From Eledone cirrhosa (Eukaryota): a stretch of 64,000 bases of DNA. This document shows positions 253-24,279 of the stretch, one piece after another; position 1 is the stretch's first letter; the number at the start of each line of letters is the position of its first letter. Location of the stretch: contig OZ024741.1 in NCBI GenBank assembly GCA_964016885.1, forward strand, positions 327,112,001 through 327,176,000. The letters are read 5' to 3'. The position numbers and the translations under genes are program-made. Below the pieces are notes generated by a model. That model was not told the origin of the DNA. It searched no databases and was given only the letters and a program-made list of their open reading frames with translations.

Positions 253-320
253 ACATACATAAATGCATATATATATAAACACACACACACATATATACAT
301 GCATACATATATGTATATAA

Positions 321-389
<69 letters not shown>

Positions 390-464
390 CATACATGCAC
401 ATACACACACACACTCATATATATATATATACACACATGCATACACACACACAAACACACAAAT

Positions 465-495
<31 letters not shown>

Positions 496-759
496 AAGAG
501 ATATATATATCTTTCTTTATTTGCCTCAGGGCCGTACAAAAATGGGACATTACAAGACATGACGGCGGGGGTTTTACATAAAAATAACTTTAACATTAAT
601 AAATAACAATAAATTATATATAATAAAATAACAATTGAAATCCCCAATAGGGGGAACGTTACAGCAGGGTTGTTTTACATCCCGTGGATAGAACAACCTT
701 CAACACCAGGAACACGTTTTGTAGGTGTTCCTGTCTTCCCTCTGTTTATCTTCCTCAAC

Positions 760-4123: not shown

Positions 4124-4163
4124 GCTGGTGAAGAAGAATTAAGGAGAGAAAAGGCAGGAACAC

Positions 4164-4859: not shown

Positions 4860-4876
4860 TAAATCGAGGCCAATGC

Positions 4877-5112
4877 TTTACTGGTACTTTAGTTTATAGA
4901 CTGCGTATGAGTGAAAATCAAAGCTAACCTTGCCGGGATTTCAACTCAGAACATAAAGCGCCGTAACTCTATGCCCTGAAGCATATTGTCCAACGCTCTA
5001 ACGGTATTACTATTCAATCACCCTCTTATAATGTTAATAACAATTGTTTCTACTTTTAGCACAATGCCAGAAATTACTCAGTACATTACTGGTACTTTAT
5101 TTTTATGGACCC
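4877..5112 (-). mobile_element. Two tRNA-derived SINE fragments
   Basis: Reverse complement matches the SINE at 38206-38426 (B-box-like GAGTTGAAATCCC, AAGTACCAG core, TAGAAACAATT tail). Confidence 0.7.
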
Positions 5113-5172
<60 letters not shown>

Positions 5173-5501
5173 GATGGTGGTGGTAGGAGTATTATGAGGA
5201 GTATGAGGAGCGTATGAGGAGGAGTGGCGAACGGAAAGTATAAATACTGTTGAAGATCGAAAATCAACGGAAGTAATATACTCCCCACGGATTTAGCTAA
5301 GTAGCTTTCTAGAGAAGAGGATTCTGCGCCAAACGAAATGGATTGGAATGGAATAAAAAAGGCGTAAAAACGATATATTTAATGTACGTTGCTAGTTCCA
5401 GCGAAGCAGGCTTCTAACGCATCCCTGCAATATAAACTTTCTATCGGGAATATCCGCCAGGCAATTGTCCACAGTATATCCGCCGTCATTTTATCCAGGT
5501 G

Positions 5502-5533
<32 letters not shown>

Positions 5534-6443
5534 TATATATATAGAGAGAGGGGGTGTGAGAGAGTGAATGTGACAGAGTGAGAGTGTGATATATATACGG
5601 GAAGCTCATAAATATATCGGGAAACAATCATGAACGTATTTCGTTACAACTATCATTATTTCGTTGGGTTTTATTACCACTTTTTATTTGAGTTTTATGT
5701 TCTGACTGAATAACACGTACGTGCACCATTAATATCATTACATGCAATAAGCTTTCCAGATTCTTTTTAATCTGGCTTGCTTCGTATATTGAATACTACT
5801 TGAGCCAATTTAATTGTTACCATTGCTATCGGTTTAATTGAAAACGTTAAAGGTAGAGAAAAAGAAGCAAAACAAACCGAATCGGTTTACCTCAATGGAT
5901 GTTTTTCATTGAAACACATTTAGTAGAAAGCCACCATTCATTTCAACAGGATGTTAAAATTCCAATGAGTGAATTACGATCATGTGTTGTTATGTGCGAA
6001 TTGCGATGAAATTTCCTCCCATGGATTCTAGATTGTAACCAAACGAAACCAAAAACAATTAAGCCTTTGTAATGCCTTCAATGTTTAGTATAGTACATAG
6101 ATTTCCAATCAGTTGTTCCATCCTGCAATCATCCATTTACGCACATACATATACGTATGAGTACACACGAGTACGCATGCTCACCAACGACGGTACAATG
6201 ACAAAAATATACATGTATGCATGCATACGCATATATTCATATATGTTTCTATGACACTACCCTCTTTTCTCTCTCACCCACTCTCTCTCTGTATATGTGT
6301 ATATATATATATACACATACATATATATATACATATATATATATATATAATATATATATACCATATATATACATATATAATATATATATATATCTATATA
6401 TATATAATATATATATTTATATACATTTAAATATATATAATAT

Positions 6444-6720: not shown

Positions 6721-7070
6721 TTAAGTGGTTCTGCATAAAGTATATTTCATAATGATATATATATGTTTGAATAGTAGCGAAACATATACATATATATGTA
6801 TGCATGTATTTATCTATCTATCTATCTATATATAATCTAATCTAGCTGTCGTCTGTTCTACAGTGTGGATGTCATTCACTTCGCACAGAAGTTTTGTTCA
6901 AATTTATTGAGGAAATTTTGTGAGTTCAAACTTAATTTTGATACAATTGTGTAGCTTGACCCTCCGTCTGAACTGTCAGGCGGTGGGTCAGCTCATCTTT
7001 ACCCCTCCTAGAGGTGAAAAACCTGTTTTAAAAAAAATTTTGTGTAAAAAATTTCAATCGTCTAACAGAA

Positions 7071-8948
7071 ATGTTAAACGCAGCGAACGAAAATAGTGGT
7101 GGGGGGACAGCGGTAAGAGTTGTAAGCTCGCACGCTTTAGTCCTCCCTTCCTTCCCAACTAACGTCATAGAGAAGGAAGGAAAAATGAAAATAAAAACGG
7201 ACGAATCTGCGGAGGAAAAATTAAATGACGAAAACAACGAAAAAAAAAAATTTGAAAAATTGCATGACAATACTAATAACACAAACAAAGACACAACAAA
7301 CAAAAAAATAACAGTTGAAAATAACATCATATCAGAAAACAAAGCAGACGACCAGATTTCATTTGCACAGAAAACAAAGAAATCTTTGACTTATATAGCG
7401 GAAAACATTTCAGATGTGGTACGAAGGATCACGGACGCAAAACAATACATAAGTGAAGGTGAGAATGGTATTTTATTGGTAAAAATGCCTCAAGAATTCA
7501 CGAAAGACATTGAAAGCCGAACGGTCAAGTTTCGGACCATCAACAACAGTACAAAAAAACCTGAACAGCCTTCTCAAGCAGATATCAAAACAGTACTCGC
7601 AGAAGTACTGAATGAAACAACTTCCATAAGAAAAGACAGACTGTATGGAAGTCTAGCAATTATCATGAAGAACGAATCGGCGGCAAAAAAATGTGCTTTG
7701 TCACCGATTCGTTCGAAAAATTTCACCTTTTATCCATCTTATATGGGAAAAAAAACTCAACGCATATGGCTGGATGCAATGATGCCAGATGTGGACTACT
7801 GCTGGCTCCTAGCTGGCTTCATCGATCCAGTGAATGACAACGTGATTTCCATTGGGAAAACCACAGGCAATGCGTTCAGTGGAACAGGTATAGAGCTGGT
7901 AGTACAAATGAAGCCTGAACGCATCGCCCAAATACCCGACAGAATCCTATTAGAGGACCACGGGTATATAAACATTAGCGTGGAGGGGAGAAGGCTGTCC
8001 TGCCATATCTGTGCAGGCAGAGGGCACCTGAAGGCCGCTTGTCCCCAACTCAACAAAAAGAAAACCCTGCTACCAACACCAGCTCCACCACCACCACCAC
8101 AACAGATAAACAAACAACAAAACTCAGTCCCACCCAACCCGTCCCTCAGTAACACCACAACACCACCACAACACAAACAGTCACAACACATTACCCCAAA
8201 ACAAAATACAGGCCCACCCAACCTCTCACTCAATAAAACAACACAACCACCGCAGACACAACACACAACACAGTCTAACATAGTGACATCCATCTCCCCC
8301 ACAAAGAAAACCAACACGGAAACATTACCAGCAAACATACCTCTTCCCTCCAACACTGAAGATAACCCAACGAATTCGGAGGAAGAAACGGAGTCCTTCA
8401 GACAGATTAAAAGGAAAAAAAGAAAACATGTGCAAAACACACAAGGACAAACAACCCCCACCCAAATCGCAACACAATCTAACAAAACAGAAAACACCCC
8501 TCCAGCAACAAACAAAACCAAACCTGCCCCTCCCCTCTTCGAAACACTCACACCATCGGAAAAAAAGACATTACACTATACTTACATCAACAGAAACAAT
8601 AATAAATTAAATGAACTCATATACAATAATCCTTCGGTACAAACCGAAGGTGTAAACTTTGTTTCATCAGAAAACCACCCACATTTAAAACTAATAAAAA
8701 TCCCAATGAACCTCTACCAAAAACTAAAAAAGGATTTTAAGGAGGACGTAGGACCACCCTCTGTCAAACCCATAAACCGCGTCCTACTAAAAAGCTTTCC
8801 CCCTCCCCTTCCCCTCCCCAACACAACTCCAAACACCCCAACCCCACCACACACCGACGACCCCACACCACCACAAGACACCCCTTCACCCAACACCCCC
8901 GACCCCATGGAAGTCGTGCAACCCGAACCTCGGGAAGCGGAAAGGTAG
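7071..8948 (+). CDS. LINE ORF1 nucleic-acid-binding protein with a CCHC zinc knuckle
   Basis: 625 aa ORF upstream of ORF2; CHICAGRGHLKAAC fits C-x2-C-x4-H-x4-C. Start could be the downstream MKIK. Confidence 0.9.
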   Translation: MLNAANENSGGGTAVRVVSSHALVLPSFPTNVIEKEGKMKIKTDESAEEKLNDENNEKKKFEKLHDNTNNTNKDTTNKKITVENNIISENKADDQISFAQKTKKSLTYIAENISDVVRRITDAKQYISEGENGILLVKMPQEFTKDIESRTVKFRTINNSTKKPEQPSQADIKTVLAEVLNETTSIRKDRLYGSLAIIMKNESAAKKCALSPIRSKNFTFYPSYMGKKTQRIWLDAMMPDVDYCWLLAGFIDPVNDNVISIGKTTGNAFSGTGIELVVQMKPERIAQIPDRILLEDHGYINISVEGRRLSCHICAGRGHLKAACPQLNKKKTLLPTPAPPPPPQQINKQQNSVPPNPSLSNTTTPPQHKQSQHITPKQNTGPPNLSLNKTTQPPQTQHTTQSNIVTSISPTKKTNTETLPANIPLPSNTEDNPTNSEEETESFRQIKRKKRKHVQNTQGQTTPTQIATQSNKTENTPPATNKTKPAPPLFETLTPSEKKTLHYTYINRNNNKLNELIYNNPSVQTEGVNFVSSENHPHLKLIKIPMNLYQKLKKDFKEDVGPPSVKPINRVLLKSFPPPLPLPNTTPNTPTPPHTDDPTPPQDTPSPNTPDPMEVVQPEPREAER

Positions 8949-8981
8949 GTCTCTACACTCTCCTTTGGCTCTGCCGCCCAC

Positions 8982-11900
8982 ATGGATGTGTTAAGAGTAG
9001 GATGTTTGAATGCACGTGGCCTGGGCTCAACTTGGAAGCAAGCAAAGCTTCTAAATGACCTCAGGTCATGTAGTATAAATGTAATGGTTATCTGTGAGAC
9101 TCGAATCAGCGTCATGCGGCAGCTGGCCCCCACCTTCGATGACTTTGAGGTGCATGCATCTCTCTGTCAACCTGGAGGTGGGGGTGGGGTTGTCGTGCTG
9201 CTGCAAAAACACCTGGGTCTTGCCGTACAGGTTGTGCACTCGGACCCGGAGGGTCGTTTGTTGGTGCTAGACGTTGGCAGTAGTGAAAGTGCGGCCTTGA
9301 GACTGGTCGCCGTCTACTCCCCTTTCGGAGCTGAACGGCCCGACTTCTTCCAGCGTTTGGAGACTTTTCTGGGAACGTCGCGTTCCCTGCTTCTAGCGGG
9401 GGATTGGAATGACATCCTGGATGCACGTTGGGACTATGCAGGAGCATGTCCTAATAGAGGGGGGTGTAACAGCCTCAAGGGGTTACTCGACCGTTTTAAC
9501 TTGGTCGATAGATATCGACTAGATTTTCCAACTGTACCTACCTGGACTTGGAGAAACCACAGTGGTCAATCTAGATCGTACTTAGATAGATTCTTAGTTA
9601 GAAGTAAGGATAGGGACATATTAAGCTGTCCAGAAATGCGCACGGTTGGCTACACGGATCACAAATTAGTGACCTGCGTGGTCAATCTCGAGAAAACACA
9701 TAGACAGGGTCCCGGTTACTGGAAACTTAATTTGTCTTTACCGGCAAAAGAGACTTACAGAAACCGGATTAGCAGATTAGTTAAGGAGAGGTTGACGGGT
9801 GCAATCGTCAACAACCGATGGTGGGCATCTCTCAAAAGAGAGATTAGAACAGAATCAATAAGTTATAGCAAGATGTTAGCTGCCAATAGGAATAGAAACG
9901 AGAAAGAATTAACAGGTAAATTAGAAGAGGCAATCAAGAGCGAAGATGTGGCCAGAGTGCTGGCATCGAGGACGGCCTTGAACCAGTTTTTCGATGCAAA
10001 GCATGAAGGCTGCGTCATTCGAAGTAAAATACGTGCTCTAGGTAATGAGGGGGCCAAAGCCGTTGGATGGGCCCGCGTGACAGAAGCTAAAAGTGGAAAT
10101 CGATCCACCATCCGGTCGTTGCAAGACGAAGATGGACGAGTGATCCGGGAGCCTAAGCAGATGTGCGAGGCCTTTCAAAAGCACTTTGCCCGATTGTTCG
10201 GGGGAGGCGAGGGTCCGGGCCGGGGCGTGGATTTCGGTCCATACCTCGACGGCCTGCCGCGTCTCTCGAACAAAGAGGCAGAGTCCTGCGAGGGACCAAT
10301 CTCGGCTGATGAGATCGGAGATGCGCTGAGCCAATGCAGCAGACGCAAATCTCCAGGTCTCGATGGTATACCTTACGAACTTTATTTAGCAATGCCGGTC
10401 TTCTTCTCCGAACTCCTCGAAGCGGTCTACTGCAATTGGCAGCAGAACGGGAGAATTCCTTGTTCTGTAGCCAAGGGCGTAGTCACGCTGGTGAGGAAGG
10501 ACGAGAACAAGGGGGATAGTATAAATAATTTTCGGCCCATAACCCTGCTAAACACAGAGTTAAAGATTTTGGCCAAGGTGTTAGCAAAGAGGTTGGCGCT
10601 TGTCGTGGGTGGCCTGGTGGGAGATGCGCAGACATGTGCTATCCCATCCAGGTCCATTCACGATAACCTCCACCTCATGCGATACATCATAGAGAGGGTT
10701 GGCAACAAACCCGGCTTCGGTGGGGCCCTGATCAACTTGGATCAGTCTAAGGCCTTCGATAGGGTCGACCATGGTTACCTGGATGCGGTGCTAGCGGCGG
10801 CTGGGTTCGGTCCTGTTTTCAGAGGCTGGATCACTGCCCTACATAGCAACCACATCTGTTCTAGGATCAAGGTGAACGGCTACCTTTCGAAGCCGTTCGA
10901 AATCACACGATCCATTCGACAGGGGTGCCCTCTCTCCTCCCTTCTGTACGTATTGACTCTCGAGCCTTTACTGAGGAAGTTGGAGTTGTTGCAGGGTATC
11001 CCCCTGGAACCAGGATTGAGCAAAGCAGTGTCGGCCTACGCCGATGACGTAACAGTAATGGTATCAACCAACTCGGAGATCGAGGCGATCGGTACCTTAC
11101 TGGAGGAGTACGAAAGGTTGTCAGGAGCGAAACTGAACCGGGAAAAATCCATCGGGCTGCAACTCGGAACGTGGAGAGGCAAACCGATGCCTCCTGACGG
11201 TGTCGTCGGACACTGGACGGAGGGCCCGGTAAAGTTGCTTGGGGTCTGGTTTGGACCGGACCTCCAGGTGGAAAAGAACTGGAACGAGGTTACGAACAAG
11301 GTGTTTGCACTAACCCAGAAATGGGCCAAGTGTAAGCTGTCCCTAAAAGGCCGGGCGGAGGTTGCGAACATTTACATAGCGTCCGTCACTTACTACCGCC
11401 TGACTGTCGTGCCTTGCCCTAAGGAAACACTCACCACCATGGAACGCATGCTCTTCCAATTTCTTTGGAAGAAGCGTCCTCCTATGGTGAGAAGATCCAT
11501 CTGCTGCCAACAACCTTCGAAAGGAGGGCTGGGGATGCCGTGGTTGATGATGCGTAGGCACGCATTGAGGCTACGGCACCTACAGGTATTCCTCACTGGT
11601 CAACCGGTGTGGGCTCCGTTCGTGAAACGAGCCTTTCCGAGACTCGTCTCACTCACCGAGCTACAGTCCTGGGTCAAGCAAAGATCCGGAAAACTGGGAG
11701 ACTGGCACACTGAGTGTGCTCAGGCGCTCAGGGCTCTCTGGCAAGCGGGCCGGGCCATCGGTGGAGAATCCACCTCATCATTCTATAGAGGGCTGGTGGC
11801 TAGCAGGGGCGATGACACACTTGGAGAGTCGCTGGACATGGAAGAAGACGAACTGGCCAGCCTGTTCGGTAGGACTTTCGGCCCAGGACCAATGGACAAC

Positions 11901-12419
11901 TTCCAGAAGTCACTGGCCTGGCAGTGCTACCGAGGGGCTCTACCCGTTCGAGAGAGGCTCTACAGACACGGGCGCCCGGGCAGGGATCCCTCAAAAAAGA
12001 TTTGCCCTAGATGCGTGCGTCACGAAGAAACCGTGGCGCACGCATTGGTGCAATGTCCGGGCGTGGCTGATCTGTGGGGCTACGCCGAACAACTGCTGTC
12101 GCGGGTGGCGCCGATTAAATTGACCGCCGAGTCCGTGATGACAATCAAACCGCCTCCCCTCTTCACAAAGGAAGCAAAGGCGGTTTTTCTGTGCGTAATA
12201 GCCATGTTGAAAGAGGTTGTTTGGTGGACACGATTGAAAGGTCTGAGGTCAGGCAACTTCCTCTCTGGCCATAGTCTGGTCTACTTCTTCCGATATCACT
12301 TCGGAAGAAGGATAAGAATGGAGAGAGAGGTGCTTGGCCACAGGCAGTTTTATGAAAGGTGGGTGATAGTGGCGAGAATGGCTCGTGTAAATGGGCCTTC
12401 TCTGTATACCATCCTGTAG
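8982..12419 (+). CDS. LINE ORF2: APE endonuclease, reverse transcriptase, C-terminal Cys/His finger
   Basis: 1145 aa; APE motifs LNARGL, ET, GDWN, SYLDRF, TDH; RT motifs SPGLDG, RPITLLN, LDQSKAFDRV, RQGCPLS, YADD; CPRC..ETVAHALVQC. Confidence 0.97.
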   Translation: MDVLRVGCLNARGLGSTWKQAKLLNDLRSCSINVMVICETRISVMRQLAPTFDDFEVHASLCQPGGGGGVVVLLQKHLGLAVQVVHSDPEGRLLVLDVGSSESAALRLVAVYSPFGAERPDFFQRLETFLGTSRSLLLAGDWNDILDARWDYAGACPNRGGCNSLKGLLDRFNLVDRYRLDFPTVPTWTWRNHSGQSRSYLDRFLVRSKDRDILSCPEMRTVGYTDHKLVTCVVNLEKTHRQGPGYWKLNLSLPAKETYRNRISRLVKERLTGAIVNNRWWASLKREIRTESISYSKMLAANRNRNEKELTGKLEEAIKSEDVARVLASRTALNQFFDAKHEGCVIRSKIRALGNEGAKAVGWARVTEAKSGNRSTIRSLQDEDGRVIREPKQMCEAFQKHFARLFGGGEGPGRGVDFGPYLDGLPRLSNKEAESCEGPISADEIGDALSQCSRRKSPGLDGIPYELYLAMPVFFSELLEAVYCNWQQNGRIPCSVAKGVVTLVRKDENKGDSINNFRPITLLNTELKILAKVLAKRLALVVGGLVGDAQTCAIPSRSIHDNLHLMRYIIERVGNKPGFGGALINLDQSKAFDRVDHGYLDAVLAAAGFGPVFRGWITALHSNHICSRIKVNGYLSKPFEITRSIRQGCPLSSLLYVLTLEPLLRKLELLQGIPLEPGLSKAVSAYADDVTVMVSTNSEIEAIGTLLEEYERLSGAKLNREKSIGLQLGTWRGKPMPPDGVVGHWTEGPVKLLGVWFGPDLQVEKNWNEVTNKVFALTQKWAKCKLSLKGRAEVANIYIASVTYYRLTVVPCPKETLTTMERMLFQFLWKKRPPMVRRSICCQQPSKGGLGMPWLMMRRHALRLRHLQVFLTGQPVWAPFVKRAFPRLVSLTELQSWVKQRSGKLGDWHTECAQALRALWQAGRAIGGESTSSFYRGLVASRGDDTLGESLDMEEDELASLFGRTFGPGPMDNFQKSLAWQCYRGALPVRERLYRHGRPGRDPSKKICPRCVRHEETVAHALVQCPGVADLWGYAEQLLSRVAPIKLTAESVMTIKPPPLFTKEAKAVFLCVIAMLKEVVWWTRLKGLRSGNFLSGHSLVYFFRYHFGRRIRMEREVLGHRQFYERWVIVARMARVNGPSLYTIL

Positions 12420-12884
12420 GTAAAGAAGTAAAGGAGAGGGGAGCACCTTCTCCATGTGCTCCCCGGGCAAAGGATTGCACACTTTTTCGGGGGTGTGTGC
12501 AACCCCCATCACGTCCCCTCCCTTTTGAGGTTATTTTCGATTATTTTCATGTTACACCCTTTTTACTCGATCATATGTAAACTCCCCCTTTGTATTTGTC
12601 CCTTCTTTTTATGCCTTTATGGTAAATAAAGAAATCTATCTATATATAATCTAATCTAGCTGTCGTCTGTTCTACAGTGTGGATGTCATTCACTTCGCAC
12701 AGAAGTTTTGTTCAAATTTATTGAGGAAATTTTGTGAGTTCAAACTTAATTTTGATACAATTGTGTAGCTTGACCCTCCGTCTGAACTGTCAGGCGGTGG
12801 GTCAGCTCATCTTTACCCCTCCTAGAGGTGAAAAACCTGTTTTAAAAAAAATTTTGTGTAAAAAATTTCAATCGTCTAACAGAA

Positions 12885-14762
12885 ATGTTAAACGCAGCGA
12901 ACGAAAATAGTGGTGGGGGGACAGCGGTAAGAGTTGTAAGCTCGCACGCTTTAGTCCTCCCTTCCTTCCCAACTAACGTCATAGAGAAGGAAGGAAAAAT
13001 GAAAATAAAAACGGACGAATCTGCGGAGGAAAAATTAAATGACGAAAACAACGAAAAAAAAAAATTTGAAAAATTGCATGACAATACTAATAACACAAAC
13101 AAAGACACAACAAACAAAAAAATAACAGTTGAAAATAACATCATATCAGAAAACAAAGCAGACGACCAGATTTCATTTGCACAGAAAACAAAGAAATCTT
13201 TGACTTATATAGCGGAAAACATTTCAGATGTGGTACGAAGGATCACGGACGCAAAACAATACATAAGTGAAGGTGAGAATGGTATTTTATTGGTAAAAAT
13301 GCCTCAAGAATTCACGAAAGACATTGAAAGCCGAACGGTCAAGTTTCGGACCATCAACAACAGTACAAAAAAACCTGAACAGCCTTCTCAAGCAGATATC
13401 AAAACAGTACTCGCAGAAGTACTGAATGAAACAACTTTCATAAGAAAAGACAGACTGTATGGAAGTCTAGCAATTATCATGAAGAACGAATCGGCGGCAA
13501 AAAAATGTGCTTTGTCACCGATTCGTTCGAAAAATTTCACCTTTTATCCATCTTATATGGGAAAAAAAACTCAACGCATATGGCTGGATGCAATGATGCC
13601 AGATGTGGACTACTGCTGGCTCATAGCTGGCTTCATCGATCCAGTGAATGACAACGTGATTTCCATTGGGAAAACCACAGGCAATGCGTTCAGTGGAACA
13701 GGTATAGAGCTGGTAGTACAAATGAAGCCTGAACGCATCGCCCAAATACCCGACAGAATCCTATTAGAGGACCACGGGTATATAAACATTAGCGTGGAGG
13801 GGAGAAGGCCGTCCTGCCATATCTGTGCAGGCAGAGGGCACCTGAAGGCCGCTTGTCCCCAACTCAACAAAAAGAAAACCCTGCTACCAACACCAGCTCC
13901 ACCACCACCACCACAACAGATAAACAAACAACAAAACTCAGTCCCACCCAACCCGTCCCTCAGTAACACCACAACACCACCACAACACAAACAGTCACAA
14001 CACATTACCCCAAAACAAAATACAGGCCCACCCAACCTCTCACTCAATAAAACAACACAACCACCGCAGACACAACACACAACACAGTCTAACATAGTGA
14101 CATCCATCTCCCCCACAAAGAAAACCAACACGGAAACATTACCAGCAAACATACCTCTTCCCTCCAACACTGAAGATAACCCAACGAATTCGGAGGAAGA
14201 AACGGAGTCCTTCAGACAGATTAAAAGGAAAAAAAGAAAACATGTGCAAAACACACAAGGACAAACAACCCCCACCCAAATCGCAACACAATCTAACAAA
14301 ACAGAAAACACCCCTCCAGCAACAAACAAAACCAAACCTGCCCCTCCCCTCTTCGAAACACTCACACCATCGGAAAAAAAGACATTACACTATACTTACA
14401 TCAACAGAAACAATAATAAATTAAATGAACTCATATACAATAATCCTTCGGTACAAACCGAAGGTGTAAACTTTGTTTCATCAGAAAACCACCCACATTT
14501 AAAACTAATAAAAATCCCAATGAACCTCTACCAAAAACTAAAAAAGGATTTTAAGGAGGACGTAGGACCACCCTCTGTCAAACCCATAAACCGCGTCCTA
14601 CTAAAAAGCTTTCCCCCTCCCCTTCCCCTCCCCAACACAACTCCAAACACCCCAACCCCACCACACACCGACGACCCCACACCACCACAAGACACCCCTT
14701 CACCCAACACCCCCGACCCCATGGAAGTCGTGCAACCCGAACCCCGGGAAGCGGAAAGGTAG
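12885..14762 (+). CDS. LINE ORF1 (copy 2)
   Basis: 625 aa, intact, same zinc knuckle. Confidence 0.9.
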   Translation: MLNAANENSGGGTAVRVVSSHALVLPSFPTNVIEKEGKMKIKTDESAEEKLNDENNEKKKFEKLHDNTNNTNKDTTNKKITVENNIISENKADDQISFAQKTKKSLTYIAENISDVVRRITDAKQYISEGENGILLVKMPQEFTKDIESRTVKFRTINNSTKKPEQPSQADIKTVLAEVLNETTFIRKDRLYGSLAIIMKNESAAKKCALSPIRSKNFTFYPSYMGKKTQRIWLDAMMPDVDYCWLIAGFIDPVNDNVISIGKTTGNAFSGTGIELVVQMKPERIAQIPDRILLEDHGYINISVEGRRPSCHICAGRGHLKAACPQLNKKKTLLPTPAPPPPPQQINKQQNSVPPNPSLSNTTTPPQHKQSQHITPKQNTGPPNLSLNKTTQPPQTQHTTQSNIVTSISPTKKTNTETLPANIPLPSNTEDNPTNSEEETESFRQIKRKKRKHVQNTQGQTTPTQIATQSNKTENTPPATNKTKPAPPLFETLTPSEKKTLHYTYINRNNNKLNELIYNNPSVQTEGVNFVSSENHPHLKLIKIPMNLYQKLKKDFKEDVGPPSVKPINRVLLKSFPPPLPLPNTTPNTPTPPHTDDPTPPQDTPSPNTPDPMEVVQPEPREAER

Positions 14763-14795
14763 GTCTCTACACTCTCCTTTGGCTCTGCCGCCCAC

Positions 14796-17700
14796 ATGGA
14801 TGTGTTAAGAGTAGGATGTTTGAATGCACGTGGCCTGGGCTCAACTTGGAAGCAAGCAAAGCTTCTAAATGACCTCAGGTCATGTAGTATAAATGTAATG
14901 GTTATCTGTGAGACTCGAATCAGCGTCATGCGGCAGCTGGCCCCCACCTTCGATGACTTTGAGGTGCATGCATCTCTCTGTCAACCTGGAGGTGGGGGTG
15001 GGGTTGTCGTGCTGCTGCAAAAACACCTGGGTCTTGCCGTACAGGTTGTGCACTCGGACCCGGAGGGTCGTTTGTTGGTGCTAGACGTTGGCAGTAGTGA
15101 AAGTGCGGCCTTGAGACTGGTCGCCGTCTACTCCCCTTTCGGAGCTGAACGGCCCGACATCTTCCAGCGTTTGGAGACTTTTCTGGGAACGTCGCGTTCC
15201 CTGCTTCTAGCGGGGGATTGGAATGACATCCTGGATGCACGTTGGGACTATGCAGGAGCATGTCCTAATAGAGGGGGGTGTAACAGCCTCAAGGGGTTAC
15301 TCGACCGTTTTAACTTGGTCGATAGATATCGACTAGATTTTCCAACTGTACCTACCTGGACTTGGAGAAACCACAGTGGTCAATCTAGATCGTACTTAGA
15401 TAGATTCTTAGTTAGAAGTAAGGATAGGGACATATTAAGCTGTCCAGAAATGCGCACGGTTGGCTACACGGATCACAAATTAGTGACCTGCGTGGTCAAT
15501 CTCGAGAAAACACATAGACAGGGTCCCGGTTACTGGAAACTTAATTTGTCTTTACCGGCAAAAGAGACTTACAGAAACCGGATTAGCAGATTAGTTAAGG
15601 AGAGGTTGACGGGTGCAATCGTCAACAACCGATGGTGGGCATCTCTCAAAAGAGAGATTAGAACAGAATCAATAAGTTATAGCAAGATGTTAGCTGCCAA
15701 TAGGAATAGAAACGAGAAAGAATTAACAGGTAAATTAGAAGAGGCAATCAAGAGCGAAGATGTGGCCAGAGTGCTGGCATCGAGGACGGCCTTGAACCAG
15801 TTTTTCGATGCAAAGCATGAAGGCTGCGTCATTCGAAGTAAAATACGTGCTCTAGGTAATGAGGGGGCCAAAGCCGTTGGATGGGCCCGCGTGACAGAAG
15901 CTAAAAGTGGAAATCGATCCACCATCCGGTCGTTGCAAGACGAAGATGGACGAGTGATCCGGGAGCCTAAGCAGATGTGCGAGGCCTTTCAAAAGCACTT
16001 TGCCCGATTGTTCGGGGGAGGCGAGGGTCCGGGCCGGGGCGTGGATTTCGGTCCATACCTCGACGGCCTGCCGCGTCTCTCGAACAAAGAGGCAGAGTCC
16101 TGCGAGGGACCAATCTCGGCTGATGAGATCGGAGATGCGCTGAGCCAATGCAGCAGACGCAAATCTCCAGGTCTCGATGGTATACCTTACGAACTTTATT
16201 TAGCAATGCCGGTCTTCTTCTCCGAACTCCTCGAAGCGGTCTACTGCAATTGGCAGCAGAACGGGAGAATTCCTTGTTCTGTAGCCAAGGGCGTAGTCAC
16301 GCTGGTGAGGAAGGACGAGAACAAGGGGGATAGTATAAATAATTTTCGGCCCATAACCCTGCTAAACACAGAGTTAAAGATTTTGGCCAAGGTGTTAGCA
16401 AAGAGGTTGGCGCTTGTCGTGGGTGGCCTGGTGGGAGATGCGCAGACATGTGCTATCCCATCCAGGTCCATTCACGATAACCTCCACCTCATGCGATACA
16501 TCATAGAGAGGGTTGGCAACAAACCCGGCTTCGGTGGGGCCCTGATCAACTTGGATCAGTCTAAGGCCTTCGATAGGGTCGACCATGGTTACCTGGATGC
16601 GGTGCTAGCGGCGGCTGGGTTCGGTCCTGTTTTCAGAGGCTGGATCACTGCCCTACATAGCAACCACATCTGTTCTAGGATCAAGGTGAACGGCTACCTT
16701 TCGAAGCCGTTCGAAATCACACGATCCATTCGACAGGGGTGCCCTCTCTCCTCCCTTCTGTACGTATTGACTCTCGAGCCTTTACTGAGGAAGTTGGAGT
16801 TGTTGCAGGGTATCCCCCTGGAACCAGGATTGAGCAAAGCAGTGTCGGCCTACGCCGATGACGTAACAGTAATGGTATCAACCAACTCGGAGATCGAGGC
16901 GATCGGTACCTTACTGGAGGAGTACGAAAGGTTGTCAGGAGCGAAACTGAACCGGGAAAAATCCATCGGGCTGCAACTCGGAACGTGGAGAGGCAAACCG
17001 ATGCCTCCTGACGGTGTCGTCGGACACTGGACGGAGGGCCCGGTAAAGTTGCTTGGGGTCTGGTTTGGACCGGACCTCCAGGTGGAAAAGAACTGGAACG
17101 AGGTTACGAACAAGGTGTTTGCACTAACCCAGAAATGGGCCAAGTGTAAGCTGTCCCTAAAAGGCCGGGCGGAGGTTGCGAACATTTACATAGCGTCCGT
17201 CACTTACTACCGCCTGACTGTCGTGCCTTGCCCTAAGGAAACACTCACCACCATGGAACGCATGCTCTTCCAATTTCTTTGGAAGAAGCGTCCTCCTATG
17301 GTGAGAAGATCCATCTGCTGTCAACAACCTTCGAAAGGAGGGCTGGGGATGCCGTGGTTGATGATGCGTAGGCACGCATTGAGGCTACGGCACCTACAGG
17401 TATTCCTCACTGGTCAACCGGTGTGGGCTCCGTTCGTGAAACGAGCCTTTCCGAGACTCGTCTCACTCACCGAGCTACAGTCCTGGGTCAAGCAAAGATC
17501 CGGAAAACTGGGAGACTGGCACACTGAGTGTGCTCAGGCGCTCAGGGCTCTCTGGCAAGCGGGCCGGGCCATCGGTGGAGAATCCACCTCATCATTCTAT
17601 AGAGGGCTGGTGGCTAGCAGGGGCGATGACACACTTGGAGAGTCGCTGGACATGGAAGAAGATGAACTGGCCAGCCTGTTCGGTAGGACTTTCGGCCCAG

Positions 17701-18233
17701 GACCAATGGACAACTTCCAGAAGTCACTGGCCTGGCAGTGCTACCGAGGGGCTCTACCCGTTCGAGAGAGGCTCTACAGACACGGGCGCCCGGGCAGGGA
17801 TCCCTCAAAAAAGATTTGCCCTAGATGCGTGCGTCACGAAGAAACCGTGGCGCACGCATTGGTGCAATGTCCGGGCGTGGCTGATCTGTGGGGCTACGCC
17901 GAACAACTGCTGTCGCGGGTGGCGCCGATTAAATTGACCGCCGAGTCCGTGATGACAATCAAACCGCCTCCCCTCTTCACAAAGGAAGCAAAGGCGGTTT
18001 TTCTGTGCGTAATAGCCATGTTGAAAGAGGTTGTTTGGTGGACACGATTGAAAGGTCTGAGGTCAGGCAACTTCCTCTCTGGCCATAGTCTGGTCTACTT
18101 CTTCCGATATCACTTCGGAAGAAGGATAAGAATGGAGAGAGAGGTGCTTGGCCACAGGCAGTTTTATGAAAGGTGGGTGATAGTGGCGAGAATGGCTCGT
18201 GTAAATGGGCCTTCTCTGTATACCATCCTGTAG
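14796..18233 (+). CDS. LINE ORF2 APE-RT (copy 2)
   Basis: 1145 aa, intact; PDIF where the other copies have PDFF. Confidence 0.97.
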   Translation: MDVLRVGCLNARGLGSTWKQAKLLNDLRSCSINVMVICETRISVMRQLAPTFDDFEVHASLCQPGGGGGVVVLLQKHLGLAVQVVHSDPEGRLLVLDVGSSESAALRLVAVYSPFGAERPDIFQRLETFLGTSRSLLLAGDWNDILDARWDYAGACPNRGGCNSLKGLLDRFNLVDRYRLDFPTVPTWTWRNHSGQSRSYLDRFLVRSKDRDILSCPEMRTVGYTDHKLVTCVVNLEKTHRQGPGYWKLNLSLPAKETYRNRISRLVKERLTGAIVNNRWWASLKREIRTESISYSKMLAANRNRNEKELTGKLEEAIKSEDVARVLASRTALNQFFDAKHEGCVIRSKIRALGNEGAKAVGWARVTEAKSGNRSTIRSLQDEDGRVIREPKQMCEAFQKHFARLFGGGEGPGRGVDFGPYLDGLPRLSNKEAESCEGPISADEIGDALSQCSRRKSPGLDGIPYELYLAMPVFFSELLEAVYCNWQQNGRIPCSVAKGVVTLVRKDENKGDSINNFRPITLLNTELKILAKVLAKRLALVVGGLVGDAQTCAIPSRSIHDNLHLMRYIIERVGNKPGFGGALINLDQSKAFDRVDHGYLDAVLAAAGFGPVFRGWITALHSNHICSRIKVNGYLSKPFEITRSIRQGCPLSSLLYVLTLEPLLRKLELLQGIPLEPGLSKAVSAYADDVTVMVSTNSEIEAIGTLLEEYERLSGAKLNREKSIGLQLGTWRGKPMPPDGVVGHWTEGPVKLLGVWFGPDLQVEKNWNEVTNKVFALTQKWAKCKLSLKGRAEVANIYIASVTYYRLTVVPCPKETLTTMERMLFQFLWKKRPPMVRRSICCQQPSKGGLGMPWLMMRRHALRLRHLQVFLTGQPVWAPFVKRAFPRLVSLTELQSWVKQRSGKLGDWHTECAQALRALWQAGRAIGGESTSSFYRGLVASRGDDTLGESLDMEEDELASLFGRTFGPGPMDNFQKSLAWQCYRGALPVRERLYRHGRPGRDPSKKICPRCVRHEETVAHALVQCPGVADLWGYAEQLLSRVAPIKLTAESVMTIKPPPLFTKEAKAVFLCVIAMLKEVVWWTRLKGLRSGNFLSGHSLVYFFRYHFGRRIRMEREVLGHRQFYERWVIVARMARVNGPSLYTIL

Positions 18234-18697
18234 GTAAAGAAGTAAAGGAGAGGGGAGCACCTTCTCCATGTGCTCCCCGGGCAAAGGATTGCACACTTTT
18301 TCGGGGGTGTGTGCAACCCCCATCACGTCCCCTCCCTTTTGAGGTTATTTTCGATTATTTTCATGTTACACCCTTTTTACTCGATCATATGTAAACTCCC
18401 CCTTTGTATTTGTCCCTTCTTTTTATGCCTTTATGGTAAATAAAGAAATCTATCTATCTATATATAATCTAGCTGTCGTCTGTTCTACAGTGTGGATGTC
18501 ATTCACTTCGCACAGAAGTTTTGTCCAAATTTATTGAGGAAATTTTGTGAGTTCAAACTTAATTTTGATACAATTGTGTAGCTTGACCCTCCGTCTGAAC
18601 TGTCAGGCGGTGGGTCAGCTCATCTTTACCCCTCCTAGAGGTGAAAAACCTGTTTTAAAAAAAATTTTGTGTAAAAAATTTCAATCGTCTAACAGAA

Positions 18698-20575
18698 ATG
18701 TTAAACGCAGCGAACGAAAATAGTGGTGGGGGGACAGCGGTAAGAGTTGTAAGCTCGCACGCTTTAGTCCTCCCTTCCTTCCCAACTAACGTCATAGAGA
18801 AGGAAGGAAAAATGAAAATAAAAACGGACGAATCTGCGGAGAAAAAATTAAATGTCGAAAACAACGAAGAAAAAAAATTTGAAAAATTGCATGACAATAC
18901 TAATAACACAAACAAAGACACAACAAACAAAAAAATAACAGTTGAAAATAACATAACATCAGAAAACAAAGCAGACGACAAGATTTCATTTGCACAGAAA
19001 ACAAAGAAATCTTTGACTTATATAGCGGAAAACATTTCAGATGTGGTACGAAGGATCACGGACGCAAAACAATACATAAGTGAAGGTGAGAATGGTATTT
19101 TATTGGTAAAAATGCCTCAAGAATTCACGAAAGACATTGAAAGCCGAACGGTCAAGTTTCGGACCATCAACAACAGTACAAAAAAACCTGAACAGCCTTC
19201 TCAAGCAGATATCAAAACAGTACTCGCAGAAGTACTGAATGAAACAACTTTCATAAGAAAAGACAGACTGTATGGAAGCCTAGCAATTATCATGAAGAAC
19301 GAATCGGCGGCAAAAAAATGTGCTTTGTCACCGATTCGTTCGAAAAATTTCACCTTTTATCCATCTTATATGGGGAAAAAAACTCAACGCATATGGCTGG
19401 ATGCAATGATGCCAGATGTGGACTACTGCTGGCTCATAGCTGGCTGCATCGATCCAGTGAATGACAACGTGATTTCCATTGGGAAAACCACAGGCAATGC
19501 GTTCAGTGGAACAGGTATAGAGCTGGTAGTACAAATGAAGCCTGAACGCATCGCCCAAATACCCGACAGAATGCTATTAGAGGACCACGGGTATATAAAC
19601 ATTAGCGTGGAGGGGAGAAGGCCGTCCTGCCATATCTGTGCAGGCAGAGGGCACCTGAAGGCCGCTTGTCCCCAACTCAACAAAAAGAAAACCCTGCTAC
19701 CAACACCAGCTCCACCACCACCACCACAACAGATAAACAAACAACAAAACTCAGTCCCACCCAACCCGTCCCTCAGTAACACCACAACACCACCACAACA
19801 CAAACAGTCACAACACATTACCCCAAAACAAAATACAGGCCCACCCAACCTCTCACTCAATAAAACAACACAACCACCGCAGACACAACACACAACACAG
19901 TCTAACATAGTGACATCCATCTCCCCCACAAAGAAAACCAACACGGAAACATTACCAGCAAACATACCTCTTCCCTCCAACACTGAAGATAACCCAACGA
20001 ATTCGGAGGAAGAAACGGAGTCCTTCAGACAGATTAAAAGGAAAAAAAGAAAACATGTGCAAAACACACAAGGACAAACAACCCCCACCCAAATCGCAAC
20101 ACAATCTAACAAAACAGAAAACACCCCTCCAGCAACAAACAAAACCAAACCTACCCCTCCCCTCTTCGAAACACTCACACCATCGGAAAAAAAGACATTA
20201 CACTATACTTACATCAACAGAAACAATAATAAATTAAATGAACTCATATACAATAATCCTTCGGTACAAACCGAAGGTGTAAACTTTGTTTCATCAGAAA
20301 ACCACCCACATTTAAAACTAATAAAAATCCCAATGAACCTCTACCAAAAACTAAAAAAGGATTTTAAGGAGGACGTAGGACCACCCTCTGTCAAACCCAT
20401 AAACCGCGTCCTACTAAAAAGCTTTCCCCCTCCCCTTCCCCTCCCCAACACAACTCCAAACACCCCAACCCCACCACACACCGACGACCCCACACCACCA
20501 CAAGACACCCCTTCACCCAACACCCCCGACCCCATGGAAGTCGTGCAACCCGAACCCCGGGAAGCGGAAAGGTAG
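18698..20575 (+). CDS. LINE ORF1 (copy 3)
   Basis: 625 aa, intact. Confidence 0.9.
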   Translation: MLNAANENSGGGTAVRVVSSHALVLPSFPTNVIEKEGKMKIKTDESAEKKLNVENNEEKKFEKLHDNTNNTNKDTTNKKITVENNITSENKADDKISFAQKTKKSLTYIAENISDVVRRITDAKQYISEGENGILLVKMPQEFTKDIESRTVKFRTINNSTKKPEQPSQADIKTVLAEVLNETTFIRKDRLYGSLAIIMKNESAAKKCALSPIRSKNFTFYPSYMGKKTQRIWLDAMMPDVDYCWLIAGCIDPVNDNVISIGKTTGNAFSGTGIELVVQMKPERIAQIPDRMLLEDHGYINISVEGRRPSCHICAGRGHLKAACPQLNKKKTLLPTPAPPPPPQQINKQQNSVPPNPSLSNTTTPPQHKQSQHITPKQNTGPPNLSLNKTTQPPQTQHTTQSNIVTSISPTKKTNTETLPANIPLPSNTEDNPTNSEEETESFRQIKRKKRKHVQNTQGQTTPTQIATQSNKTENTPPATNKTKPTPPLFETLTPSEKKTLHYTYINRNNNKLNELIYNNPSVQTEGVNFVSSENHPHLKLIKIPMNLYQKLKKDFKEDVGPPSVKPINRVLLKSFPPPLPLPNTTPNTPTPPHTDDPTPPQDTPSPNTPDPMEVVQPEPREAER

Positions 20576-20608
20576 GTCTCTACACTCTCCTTTGGCTCTG
20601 CCGCCCAC

Positions 20609-23600
20609 ATGGATGTGTTAAGAGTAGGATGTTTGAATGCACGTGGCCTGGGCTCAACTTGGAAGCAAGCAAAGCTTCTAAATGACCTCAGGTCATGTAG
20701 TATAAATGTAATGGTTATCTGTGAGACTCGAATCAGCGTCATGCGGCAGCTGGCCCCCACCTTCGATGACTTTGAGGTGCATGCATCTCTCTGTCAACCT
20801 GGAGGTGGGGGTGGGGTTGTCGTGCTGATGCAAAAACACCTGGGTCTTGCCGTACAGGTTGTGCACTCGGACCCGGAGGGTCGTTTGTTGGTGCTAGACG
20901 TTGGCAGTAGTGAAAGTGCGGCCTTGAGACTGGTCGCCGTCTACTCCCCTTTCGGAGCTGAACGGCCCGACTTCTTCCAGCGTTTGGAGACTTTTCTGGG
21001 AACGTCGCGTTCCCTGCTTCTAGCGGGGGATTGGAATGACATCCTAGATGCACGTTGGGACTATGCAGGAGCATGTCCGAATAGAGGGGGGTGTAACAGC
21101 CTCAAGGGGTTACTCGACCGTTTTAACTTGGTCGATAGATATCGACTAGATTTTCCAACTGTGCCTACCTGGACTTGGAGAAACCACAGTGGTCAATCTA
21201 GATCGTACTTAGATAGATTCTTAGTTAGAAGTAAGGATAGGGACATATTAAGCTGTCCAGAAATGCGCACGGTTGGCTACACGGATCACAAATTAGTGAC
21301 CTGCGTGGTCAATCTCGAGAAAACACATAGACAGGGTCCCGGTTACTGGAAACTTAATTTGTCTTTACCGGCAAAAGAGACTTACAGAAACCGGATTAGC
21401 AGATTAGTTAAGGAGAGGTTGACGGGTGCAATCGTCAACAACCGATGGTGGGCATCTCTCAAAAGAGAGATTAGAACAGAATCAATAAGTTATAGCAAGA
21501 TGTTAGCTGCCAATAGGAATAGAAACGAGAAAGAATTAACAGGTAAATTAGAAGAGGCAATCAAGAGCGAAGATGTGGCCAGAGTGCTGGCATCGAGGAC
21601 GGCCTTGAACCAGTTTTTCGATGCAAAGCATGAAGGCTGCGTCATTCGAAGTAAAATACGTGCTCTAGGTAATGAGGGGGCCAAAGCCGTTGGATGGGCC
21701 CGCGTGACAGAAGCTAAAAGTGGAAATCGATCCACCATCCGGTCGTTGCAAGACGAAGATGGACGAGTGATCCGGGAGCCTAAGCAGATGTGCGAGGCCT
21801 TTCAAAAGCACTTTGCCCGATTGTTCGGGGGAGGCGAGGGTCCGGGCCGGGGCGTGGATTTCGGTCCATACCTCGACGGCCTGCCGCGTCTCTCGAACAA
21901 AGAGGCGGAGTCCTGCGAGGGACCAATCTCGGCTGATGAGATCGGAGATGCGCTGAGCCAATGCAGCAGACGCAAATCTCCAGGTCTCGATGGTATACCT
22001 TACGAACTTTATTTAGCAATGCCGGTCTTCTTCTCCGAACTCCTCGAAGCGGTCTACTGCAATTGGCAGCAGAACGGGAGAATTCCTTGTTCTGTAGCCA
22101 AGGGCGTAGTCACGCTGGTGAGGAAGGACGAGAACAAGGGGGATAGTATAAATAATTTTCGGCCCATAACCCTGCTAAACACAGAGTTAAAGATTTTGGC
22201 CAAGGTGTTAGCAAAGAGGTTGGCGCTTGTCGTGGGTGGCCTGGTGGGAGATGCGCAGACATGTGCTATCCCATCCAGGTCCATTCACGATAACCTCCAC
22301 CTCATGCGATACATCATAGAGAGGGTTGGCAACAAACCCGGCTTCGGTGGGGCCCTGATCAACTTGGATCAGTCTAAGGCCTTCGATAGGGTCGACCATG
22401 GTTACCTGGATGCGGTGCTAGCGGCGGCTGGGTTCGGTCCTGTTTTCAGAGGCTGGATCACTGCCCTACATAGCAACCACATCTGTTCTAGGATCAAGGT
22501 GAACGGCTACCTTTCGAAGCCGTTCGAAATCACACGATCCATTCGACAGGGGTGCCCTCTCTCCTCCCTTCTGTACGTATTGACTCTCGAGCCTTTACTG
22601 AGGAAGTTGGAGTTGTTGCAGGGTATCCCCCTGGAACCAGGATTGAGCAAAGCGGTGTCGGCCTACGCCGATGACGTAACAGTAATGGTATCAACCGACT
22701 CGGAGATCGAGGCGATCGGTACCTTACTGGAGGAGTACGAAAGGTTGTCAGGAGCGAAACTGAACCGGGAAAAATCCATCGGGCTGCAACTCGGAACGTG
22801 GAGAGGCAGACCGATGCCTCCCGATGGTGTCGTCGGACACTGGACGGAGGGCCCGGTAAAGTTGCTTGGGGTCTGGTTTGGACCGCACCTCCAGGTGGAA
22901 AAGAACTGGAACGAGGTTACGAACAAGGTGTTTGCACTAACCCAGAAATGGGCCAAGTGTAAGCTGTCCCTAAAAGGCCGGGCGCAGGTGGCGAACATTT
23001 ACATAGCGTCCGTCACTTACTACCGCCTGACTGTCGTGCCTTGCCCTAAGGAAACACTCACCACCATGGAACGCATGCTCTTCCAATTTCTTTGGAAGAA
23101 GCGTCCTCCTATGGTGAGAAGATCCATCTGCTGCCAACAACCTTCGAAAGGAGGGCTGGGGATGCCGTGGTTGATGATGCGTAGGCACGCATTAAGGCTA
23201 CGGCACCTACAGGTATTCCTCACTGGTCAACCGGTGTGGGCTCCGTTCGTGAAACGAGCCTTTCCGAGACTCGTCTCACTCACCGAGCTACAGTCCTGGG
23301 TCAAGCAAAGATCCGGAAAACTGGGAGACTGGCACACTGAGTGTGCTCAGGCGCTCAGGGCTCTCTGGCAAGCGGGCCGGGCCATCGGTGGAGAATCCAC
23401 CTCATCATTCTATAGAGGGCTGGTGGCTAGCAGGGGCGATGACACCCTTGGAGAGTCGCTGGACATGGAAGAAGACGAACTGGCCAGCCTGTTCGGTAGG
23501 ACTTTCGGCCCAGGACCAATGGACAACTTCCAGAAGTCACTGGCCTGGCAGTGCTACCGAGGGGCTCTACCCGTTCGAGAGAGGCTCTACAGACACGGGC

Positions 23601-24046
23601 GCCCGGGCAGGGATCCCTCAAAAAAGATTTGCCCTAGATGCGTGCGTCACGAAGAAACCGTGGCGCACGCATTGGTGCAATGTCCGGGCGTGGCTGATCT
23701 GTGGGGCTACGCCGAACAACTGCTGTCGCGGGTGGCGCCGATTAAATTGACAGCCGAGTCCGTGATGACAATCAAACCGCCTCCCCTCTTCACAAAGGAA
23801 GCAAAGGCGGTTTTTCTGTGCGTAATAGCCATGTTGAAAGAGGTTGTTTGGTGGACACGATTGAAAGGTCTGAGGTCAGGCAACTTCCTCTCTGGCCATA
23901 GTCTGGTCTACTTCTTCCGATATCACTTCGGAAGAAGGATAAGAATGGAGAGAGAGGTGCTTGGCCACAGGCAGTTTTATGAAAGGTGGGTGATAGTGGC
24001 GAGAATGGCTCGTGTAAATGGGCCTTCTCTGTATACCATCCTGTAG
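20609..24046 (+). CDS. LINE ORF2 APE-RT (copy 3)
   Basis: 1145 aa, intact, YADD present. Confidence 0.97.
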   Translation: MDVLRVGCLNARGLGSTWKQAKLLNDLRSCSINVMVICETRISVMRQLAPTFDDFEVHASLCQPGGGGGVVVLMQKHLGLAVQVVHSDPEGRLLVLDVGSSESAALRLVAVYSPFGAERPDFFQRLETFLGTSRSLLLAGDWNDILDARWDYAGACPNRGGCNSLKGLLDRFNLVDRYRLDFPTVPTWTWRNHSGQSRSYLDRFLVRSKDRDILSCPEMRTVGYTDHKLVTCVVNLEKTHRQGPGYWKLNLSLPAKETYRNRISRLVKERLTGAIVNNRWWASLKREIRTESISYSKMLAANRNRNEKELTGKLEEAIKSEDVARVLASRTALNQFFDAKHEGCVIRSKIRALGNEGAKAVGWARVTEAKSGNRSTIRSLQDEDGRVIREPKQMCEAFQKHFARLFGGGEGPGRGVDFGPYLDGLPRLSNKEAESCEGPISADEIGDALSQCSRRKSPGLDGIPYELYLAMPVFFSELLEAVYCNWQQNGRIPCSVAKGVVTLVRKDENKGDSINNFRPITLLNTELKILAKVLAKRLALVVGGLVGDAQTCAIPSRSIHDNLHLMRYIIERVGNKPGFGGALINLDQSKAFDRVDHGYLDAVLAAAGFGPVFRGWITALHSNHICSRIKVNGYLSKPFEITRSIRQGCPLSSLLYVLTLEPLLRKLELLQGIPLEPGLSKAVSAYADDVTVMVSTDSEIEAIGTLLEEYERLSGAKLNREKSIGLQLGTWRGRPMPPDGVVGHWTEGPVKLLGVWFGPHLQVEKNWNEVTNKVFALTQKWAKCKLSLKGRAQVANIYIASVTYYRLTVVPCPKETLTTMERMLFQFLWKKRPPMVRRSICCQQPSKGGLGMPWLMMRRHALRLRHLQVFLTGQPVWAPFVKRAFPRLVSLTELQSWVKQRSGKLGDWHTECAQALRALWQAGRAIGGESTSSFYRGLVASRGDDTLGESLDMEEDELASLFGRTFGPGPMDNFQKSLAWQCYRGALPVRERLYRHGRPGRDPSKKICPRCVRHEETVAHALVQCPGVADLWGYAEQLLSRVAPIKLTAESVMTIKPPPLFTKEAKAVFLCVIAMLKEVVWWTRLKGLRSGNFLSGHSLVYFFRYHFGRRIRMEREVLGHRQFYERWVIVARMARVNGPSLYTIL

Positions 24047-24279
24047 GTAAAGAAGTAAAGGAGAGGGGAGCACCTTCTCCATGTGCTCCCCGGGCAAAGG
24101 ATTGCACACTTTTTCGGGGGTGTGTGCAACCCCCATCACGCCCCCTCCCTTTTGAGGTTATTTTCGATTATTTTCATGTTACACCCTTTTTACTCGATTA
24201 TATGTAAACTCCCCCTTTGTATTTGTCCCTTCTTTTTATGCCTTTATGGTAAATAAAGAAATCTATCTATCTATATATA

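Follow-up and report, generated by a model that had tools for sequence, protein, structure and literature searches.

Three copies of a long interspersed nuclear element (LINE) stand head to tail on the forward strand, within one short TCTA repeat, in the genome of the octopod Eledone cirrhosa, at positions 6840-24261 of the window, a term that denotes the whole 64,000-nt stretch analysed here (contig OZ024741.1 of assembly GCA_964016885.1, positions 327,112,001 to 327,176,000). The array is confirmed as real, and the copies are best explained, with a probability of about 0.65, as intact and recently active LINEs of the type that carries an apurinic/apyrimidinic endonuclease (APE), likely members of the Tx1 clade and likely targeting (TCTA)n, which entered one self-duplicating site at least twice. 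The repeated entry is likely due to each insertion duplicating the target instead of using it up.

The element is 5,795 nt long in all three copies, which align without a single indel, share the core start ATCTAGCTG and the end AATAAAGAAA, and carry the 3' terminus GGTAAATAAAGAAA with no A-tract. Specifically, copy 1 occupies 6840-12634 (open reading frame (ORF) 1 at 7071-8948, ORF2 at 8982-12419), copy 2 occupies 12649-18448 with a core at 12654-18448 (ORF1 at 12885-14762, ORF2 at 14796-18233), and copy 3 occupies 18467-24261 (ORF1 at 18698-20575, ORF2 at 20609-24046), all on the forward strand, with ORF1 (625 aa) and ORF2 (1,145 aa) open in each of the three. On the left, the array is bounded by (TCTA)4(TA)3 at 6813-6834, the target site or 5' target-site duplication (TSD); copies 1 and 2 are separated by a 14-nt spacer, (TCTA)2(TA)3, at 12635-12648, copies 2 and 3 by an 18-nt spacer, (TCTA)3(TA)3, at 18449-18466, and (TCTA)3(TA)3 recurs at the right boundary (24262-24279), where a TA/CA microsatellite follows up to 24576. 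Direct repeats of 14-18 nt, of the kind expected from TSDs, are therefore present at all four array boundaries. Moreover, an extra ATCTA precedes the common start in copy 1 (6835-6839) and copy 2 (12649-12653) and is absent from copy 3. On both strands of the window, the 14-mer TCTATCTATATATA occurs four times, each time at an array boundary; the 93,002 positions outside the array contain a single TCTATCTAT but 11 occurrences of TCTATATATA, which makes the TA portion of the motif common background, unlike the TCTA portion. This anatomy bears out the preliminary description of the window, which had reported three intact, full-length LINEs without poly(A), stacked in one site at these same coordinates and differing in junctions, 5' ends and private substitutions, with copy 3 the most distinct (30 private substitutions, against 4 in copy 1 and 3 in copy 2); the boundary motif that it had given is likewise present at all four sites, except that the left tract is longer than had been noted.

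Judged by their sequences, the proteins place the element among the APE-type non-LTR retrotransposons of the L1/Tx1 group. ORF2 codes for an APE endonuclease with intact catalytic residues (N10, E39, D141, N143, D202, H227), a reverse transcriptase (RT) with the YADD motif at residue 686, and a C-terminal CX2CX8HX4C motif; in Pfam it matches Exo_endo_phos and RVT_1, plus zf-RVT at a borderline 26.9 bits (cut-off 27.5), and its best PDB match is human L1 ORF2p (8sxt; E=8.8e-50, 172 bits), with endonuclease and RT colinear over aa 8-855. The 5' truncation expected of such elements is seen in truncated copies among sequencing reads and in an older relative at 512-4865. ORF1 is predicted to contain tandem RNA recognition motifs (RRMs), one CCHC knuckle (aa 311-324) and, after it, a low-complexity P/T/Q tail. 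A Pfam search of ORF1 gave no match; the structure predicted for aa 112-339 of copy 3 (predicted local distance difference test, pLDDT, 94) has RRM proteins as its top PDB fold matches (tandem RRM, E from 5e-5). One or more RRMs followed by a CCHC knuckle is the layout of Tx1 ORF1, unlike that of vertebrate L1 ORF1, and it is the layout of the predicted model; the element thus differs from human L1 both in its predicted RRM-RRM-CCHC ORF1 and in the lack of poly(A). In the ESM Atlas, the element proteins fell into generic RT/endonuclease and CCHC clusters with a ZCCHC3-like lead at 0.89, and a literature search for a link between ORF1 and ZCCHC3 found nothing.

The position in an RT tree agrees with this assignment. 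In a quick analysis of 61 rows, in which the Tx1 anchors were assigned by ourselves and no curated Tx1 reference is among the rows, the element pairs with its nearest named homologue, a protein of Argonauta hians (67% over the RT region), with a support of 99 in the Shimodaira-Hasegawa-like approximate likelihood ratio test (SH-aLRT); the next step out adds other proteins together with the families of the metagenome-assembled genome (MAG) G001 discussed below (SH-aLRT 100), and then turtle and fish proteins, the nearest named homologues outside the element's own clade (SH-aLRT 97). All of these sit within a 42-row group (SH-aLRT 88), apart from the L1-like and plant rows, that also holds a U2-inserted Keno-like element and U1-inserted elements; the L1-like controls P0012 and P0008, which score 326 and 319 bits against human L1, fall outside the element's group. 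Pfam matches, L1 ORF2p alignment, ORF1 fold and tree position hence concur with the Tx1-like identity proposed at the outset, and the element likely belongs to the Tx1 clade. The recent activity that had also been proposed is supported, and the family is present in 9 sequencing runs from 5 studies under 6 organism labels, at 0.13-0.74 of the sampled words; reads were aligned from 4 of the 13 listed runs. Around the 5' end of the element, Rfam returned nothing above the gathering score and no sign of a catalogued ribozyme, and the predicted fold of the first 130 nt is no more stable than that of shuffled sequences (z 0.2). Within the 5' untranslated region, the stretch at 6950-7075 forms strong GC-rich hairpins (z = -5.8 against shuffles), also with no Rfam match above the gathering score. 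The TATATAA at the 5' junction was considered as a TATA box and rejected, as transcription beginning 25-30 nt downstream of it would lead to gradual loss of the 5' end.

Copy 3 descends from a separate active source lineage, and at least two insertions occurred at the site. Its 30 differences are spread over element positions 59-5733 with no mosaic block, and in ORF2 it differs from copies 1 and 2 by 11 synonymous changes over 813 sites and 5 non-synonymous changes over 2,622 sites (dN/dS 0.14, p=1.7e-4). Since it is in active source elements that selection operates on ORF2, separate insertions gave rise to copy 3 and to the copy 1/2 type; in ORF1, the corresponding counts are 3 synonymous and 8 non-synonymous, a ratio of 0.77. 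Reads from X11, a run of restriction site-associated DNA (RAD) from the same or a closely related species that supplies the junction evidence outside the window, show the copy 3 letter at 7353 (67/67), 7652 (133/133) and 12572 (59/59), which makes the letter of copies 1 and 2 a derived state that both share; letters found only in copy 1 are absent from X11, where the other letter is read in 168/168 cases at 7624 and 7/7 at 7809. These observations also argue against the three copies being the product of one event, such as template jumping of the RT, or an artefact of assembly, a proposal that gains something from the fact that no listed read piece spans even copy 1. It is very improbable, since copy 3 comes from another source lineage, the array contains three different types of junction, the differences are all substitutions with no indels and every ORF open, and a 14-nt junction followed by ATCTA cannot arise by mis-joining of the other junctions.

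Copies 1 and 2 are 99.88% identical, with 7 differences, and have in common the extra ATCTA and the derived alleles; they may represent a second insertion from one sublineage or a product of unequal exchange. Several features of these differences weigh against independent insertion: 3 of the 7 are synonymous, with no synonymous enrichment (p=0.21), the changes of copy 1 all lie at element positions 785-2091 and those of copy 2 all at 2506-5010, and a 6.2-kb mutation-free gap extends across the copy 1/copy 2 junction (p 0.037-0.057). At its lower value (p=0.037), this gap, together with the near-identity of the two copies, would fit a history of two insertions, of copy 3 and of one copy of the 1/2 type, followed by recombination, copies 1 and 2 being the outcome of unequal exchange or of a recombination with another like dimer; unequal exchange is in fact seen between neighbouring copies on contig C9 of G001. 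A simple misalignment of dimers, however, predicts a middle copy with the 5' end of copy 3 and two equal 18-nt junctions, whereas the observed middle copy is of the copy 1 type from its first base and the junctions measure 14 and 18 nt, and this history is on balance doubtful. The serial independent insertion put forward in the preliminary description consequently holds for copy 3, through ORF2 selection and the reads, and remains tentative for copies 1 and 2, with their 7 clustered differences (p about 0.04-0.06).

The target likely consists of (TCTA)n tracts, as judged from junctions in the reads and in the window. Among the X11 joints listed (15 of 227, with 12 of 63 in-between rows), three are built of the element 3' end, 11-25 nt starting with TCTATCTAT, and a 5'-truncated copy: one leads from 12643 to 11900 across CT (244 reads, 2 starts), one from 12647 to 11330 (123 reads, 2 starts; 38 of them with an intervening CTCTACTAGTTC), and one from 12647 to 11310 across CTATCTAT (33 reads). 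These joints appear to reflect stacking at other loci. TCTATCTAT begins all three 3' junctions in the window, all three tail-to-interior joints listed and the junction in one contig, a small and tandem-biased sample; contig 16 of run X4 runs from 12150 into the spacer up to 12647. At the 5' junction, where repeats were passed over, none of the loose read ends listed was located; a further 2,438 loose ends lie beyond the listing. In none of the three joints does (TA)3 directly precede the truncated copy, the letter at 12644 being ambiguous in two. Since the joints share only TCTATCTAT, with at least (TCTA)2 in each, and lack (TA)3 at that place, the target looks like (TCTA)n and not like the TCTA/TA boundary specified in the preliminary description, a claim that is not sustained; its other proposal, stacking through TSDs, is supported, also by these tail-to-truncated-copy joints.

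Some points weigh against a (TCTA)n target. A single RAD run supplied the read joints; its starts are fixed (2 each), the sides measure 26-31 nt, the likeness is 85, and its species label is possibly other than that of the window. All three joints are tandem junctions, so their TCTA could derive from the RNA tail and not from the site. Furthermore, the older relative (512-4865, reverse strand), a broken and 5'-truncated LINE with 72% nucleotide identity over ORF2, has the same terminal AATAAAGAAA followed by GATATATATATC, not by TCTA, which implies that the target differs between related families in this genome. This relative lies inside a TA/CA microsatellite block. Microsatellite tails occur in other LINE clades, and (TCTA)n could be conceived as the element's own 3' tail, with loose landing in TA-rich microsatellites: every 3' junction observed begins with TCTATCTAT whatever comes after, TA-type repeats are found throughout the window (81 rows in the repeat listing), and the older relative sits in TA-type sequence. 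Such a tail is nonetheless rather improbable, given that the (TCTA)4 upstream of copy 1 stands outside any 3' end and is longer than any spacer, that repeated insertion at one 18-nt site requires a preference, and that an exact 16-nt duplication is present on both sides of a copy on contig C18 of G001. Two metagenome matches to a 21-nt 3'-end pattern (L001, L002; n=2) were discarded as chance 21-mers with no further similarity.

A (TCTA)n target extends a known theme. Kibi inserts into (TC)n, Koshi into (TTC)n, and the crocodilian Tx1-1/5/6_Crp and Tx1-2/3/5/8_AMi into (TTCC)n or (TTTC)n (PMC4494074), and in that paper a family counts as sequence-specific if more than 20% of its genomic copies are flanked by the same target; the microsatellite targets catalogued in PMC3812793 include ACAY, AC, TC, TTC and TAA. 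Like them, the present element is an L1/Tx1-group APE-RT LINE that sits in a short tandem repeat. Unlike them, it uses the unit TCTA (= TAGA/GATA), which is outside the target lists of PMC4494074 and PMC3812793, has no poly(A) at the junction, and is stacked full-length in an octopod host; with its (TCTA)n(TA)3 flanks it works like Kibi and Koshi with a distinct target, and is not a member of either. A literature search found no TCTA/GATA-targeting LINE and no cephalopod Tx1 target, with Repbase and the supplements of PMC4494074, which may list one, outside its range. Stacking itself has precedents: double insertion into a preserved TSD is described as a general source of tandem transposable elements, with Drosophila R1 arrays bearing 33-nt rDNA duplications and jockey dimers as examples (10.1101/158386), and tandem SINEU-3 copies around a TSD are read as sequential insertion (PMC4494074). 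The element has in common with these the head-to-tail copies with one TSD between, the junctions of a tail with a truncated copy, and perhaps later expansion by unequal exchange; the present case is an autonomous Tx1-like family with a microsatellite target, in three full-length intact copies from two source lineages. The stacking mechanism is therefore already known; among target-specific Tx1-like elements, the array is new in its probable (TCTA)n target, in its octopod host and in ending on AATAAA without a tail.

The same mode of stacking is widespread in a sister lineage. As a single query, ORF2 had no match in genome contigs or viral contigs; an alignment query retrieved 56 loci in genome contigs and 3 in viral contigs, and the relatives in G001 have 40% ORF2 identity to the element. 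The three loci from the viral collection (L059-L061) are L1-like RT matches at 27-30% identity on three contigs of about 200 kb. The G001 contigs with relatives carry AT microsatellites, tandem tRNA clusters and LINE arrays and, for this reason, look eukaryote-derived inside a bacterial MAG. In the array set examined (contigs C3-C15 and C17-C19; loci L003-L042, L045, L062-L074 and L077-L100), a pattern search located 67 3' ends of elements, distributed over 16 contigs, with up to 13 ends on one contig; in 63 of the 67, AATAAA is directly followed by a 16-18-nt spacer and then by another copy, which is 5'-truncated in 3 of these 63 cases, and the remaining 4 ends are followed by other DNA. It is hence a trait of the lineage to stack by way of a short spacer behind the terminal AATAAA. 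The ends were sorted into at least nine families, of which family B has two spacer types, and in the 36 pairwise comparisons of the majority spacers of nine families, 3.9 of 17 positions match on average (range 0-7). The endonucleases of eight of the families, a comparison that omits the divergent family E, are 90-96% identical, with the beta-hairpin loop identical in seven; spacers thus change much faster than the endonuclease.

The four terminal 3' flanks of the G001 arrays match the spacer of their own family at 15, 13, 15 and 14 of 17 positions and those of other families at 8 or fewer, against a background of two (family A) and zero (family D) matches of at least 13 in 122,546 positions; the control for family G was not used, its threshold of 15 being above the observed match of 14. 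Among six 5' array ends, C18 shows the exact 16-nt duplication, C6 has 16 nt of spacer, C17 an 18-nt near match, and C19 matches 8 of the first 11 positions (by eye); C3 and C4 have no clear spacer match. In the first copy of L098 (C18), a stretch of the 5' untranslated region matches the spacer of family C, a hint that 5' ends captured target sequence in the past. Spacer variants are mixed in some arrays, a sign of recombination or mis-assembly, and two neighbours on C9 have one truncation point and different 3' haplotypes (11 mismatches in 502 nt), from which it follows that unequal exchange acts on such arrays.

The array in the window most likely formed by the following putative sequence of events. 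The endonuclease of ORF2 would place a nick in the (TAGA)n strand, at a border between two repeat units, as suggested by the junctions and by known target-primed reverse transcription. AATAAA is placed 4 nt before the element end and the insertions lack poly(A); as transcript cleavage is expected 10-25 nt after AATAAA, the RNA would reach into the downstream duplication and stop there. By pairing with the nicked strand, the tail of this read-through RNA would prime reverse transcription precisely at the 3' end, and cleavage of the second strand 14-18 nt away, the putative cause of the observed spacer lengths, would make the TSD a target again; copy 3 and the copy 1/2 type, which are of separate source lineages, would each have entered this cycle. 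Near-identical endonucleases with unrelated 17-nt spacers in G001 suggest that target choice may be RNA-templated. Pairing between RNA and DNA is slightly more likely than not to contribute to site choice; that it is the main determinant is a bolder and rather unlikely proposition. Similarly speculative is the broader idea that in a tail-less Tx1 sub-lineage, with members in octopods and a sister group in a different animal, the target is chosen mainly by the element's own RNA, with the 12-18-nt extension as the guide. If so, each family would inherit its target from the landing site of its founder, which for the (TCTA)n family would have been a microsatellite, the target could switch without a change of the endonuclease, and copies would pile up in their own duplications.

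Pairing of this kind has parallels in the R1 clade. In SART1Bm, target-like RNA sequence anneals to the target (PMC7265360), which also cites a need for downstream target sequence in R1Bm. The proposed point in common is that RNA whose 3' sequence resembles the target pairs with the primer strand; the endonucleases of R1Bm and SART1Bm are sequence-specific, with pairing serving to make the start of reverse transcription more precise, whereas in the present element it may set the target itself, considering the near-identical endonucleases with unrelated targets in the sister lineage. Conversely, the APE domain alone may recognise (TCTA)n/(TAGA)n, with no part for the RNA tail, as assumed for Kibi and Koshi; this is a possible explanation, though a less than even one. 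It accords with the published view, as given in PMC4494074 and PMC3812793, that target choice is mainly set by the endonuclease, and with the clustering of the G001 endonuclease differences in surface loops (aa 63-64, 111-115 and 153-158). These loops align near DNA-facing residues of L1 such as R155, which counts against guidance by RNA alone and keeps read-out by the protein in play; the terminal 3' flank matches in G001 could also have been copied from RNA. On the other side, the endonuclease would have to select spacers that match at a mean of 3.9 of 17 positions across nine families with domains 90-96% identical in the eight compared and a beta-hairpin loop that is the same in seven of eight, and the L1 endonuclease needs 5 bp upstream and 3 bp downstream, as seen in footprint and loop data (PMC1950540), which is less than the 13-15 of 17 positions matched at the array ends. 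The likelihoods given here to the alternatives do not sum to one; recombination and recognition by the endonuclease alone are compatible with parts of the history preferred for the array.

Other elements were seen along the way. Among Tx1-like LINEs in host-derived MAG contigs, the 3' ends of L044 (near 9076), L051 (near 6013) and L053 (near 7282) abut U1 snRNA at about nt 32-40, those of L046, L050 and L058 abut it at nt 3, and that of L052 abuts U2 at nt 35. From the position of Keno insertion in U2, L052 is presumably Keno-like. U1 is absent from the targets named in the legend of Fig. 3 of PMC4494074. In the window, Penelope-like fragments with GIY-YIG and weak RT matches lie on the reverse strand at 41837-42370 and 56634-61646, those at 56.6-61.6 kb being partly tandem, and broken RT-like ORFs of what by eye looks like another non-LTR clade lie at 51573-53058, also on the reverse strand; a 292-aa piece of the latter had no Pfam or PDB sequence match.

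At the least, the range of target-specific Tx1 elements is widened by a new repeat target, (TCTA)n/GATA, and by a cephalopod-like host, and the three intact ORF sets of the array are assayable material. Should target choice be guided by RNA, the rapid change of target of APE-type LINEs, a question of long standing, would become directly testable, the G001 lineage providing natural pairs of endonucleases that are about 10 residues apart and have unrelated 17-nt targets. An APE LINE that is retargeted by a short RNA extension would, if this holds true, also be of interest for gene-insertion tools based on retrotransposons.

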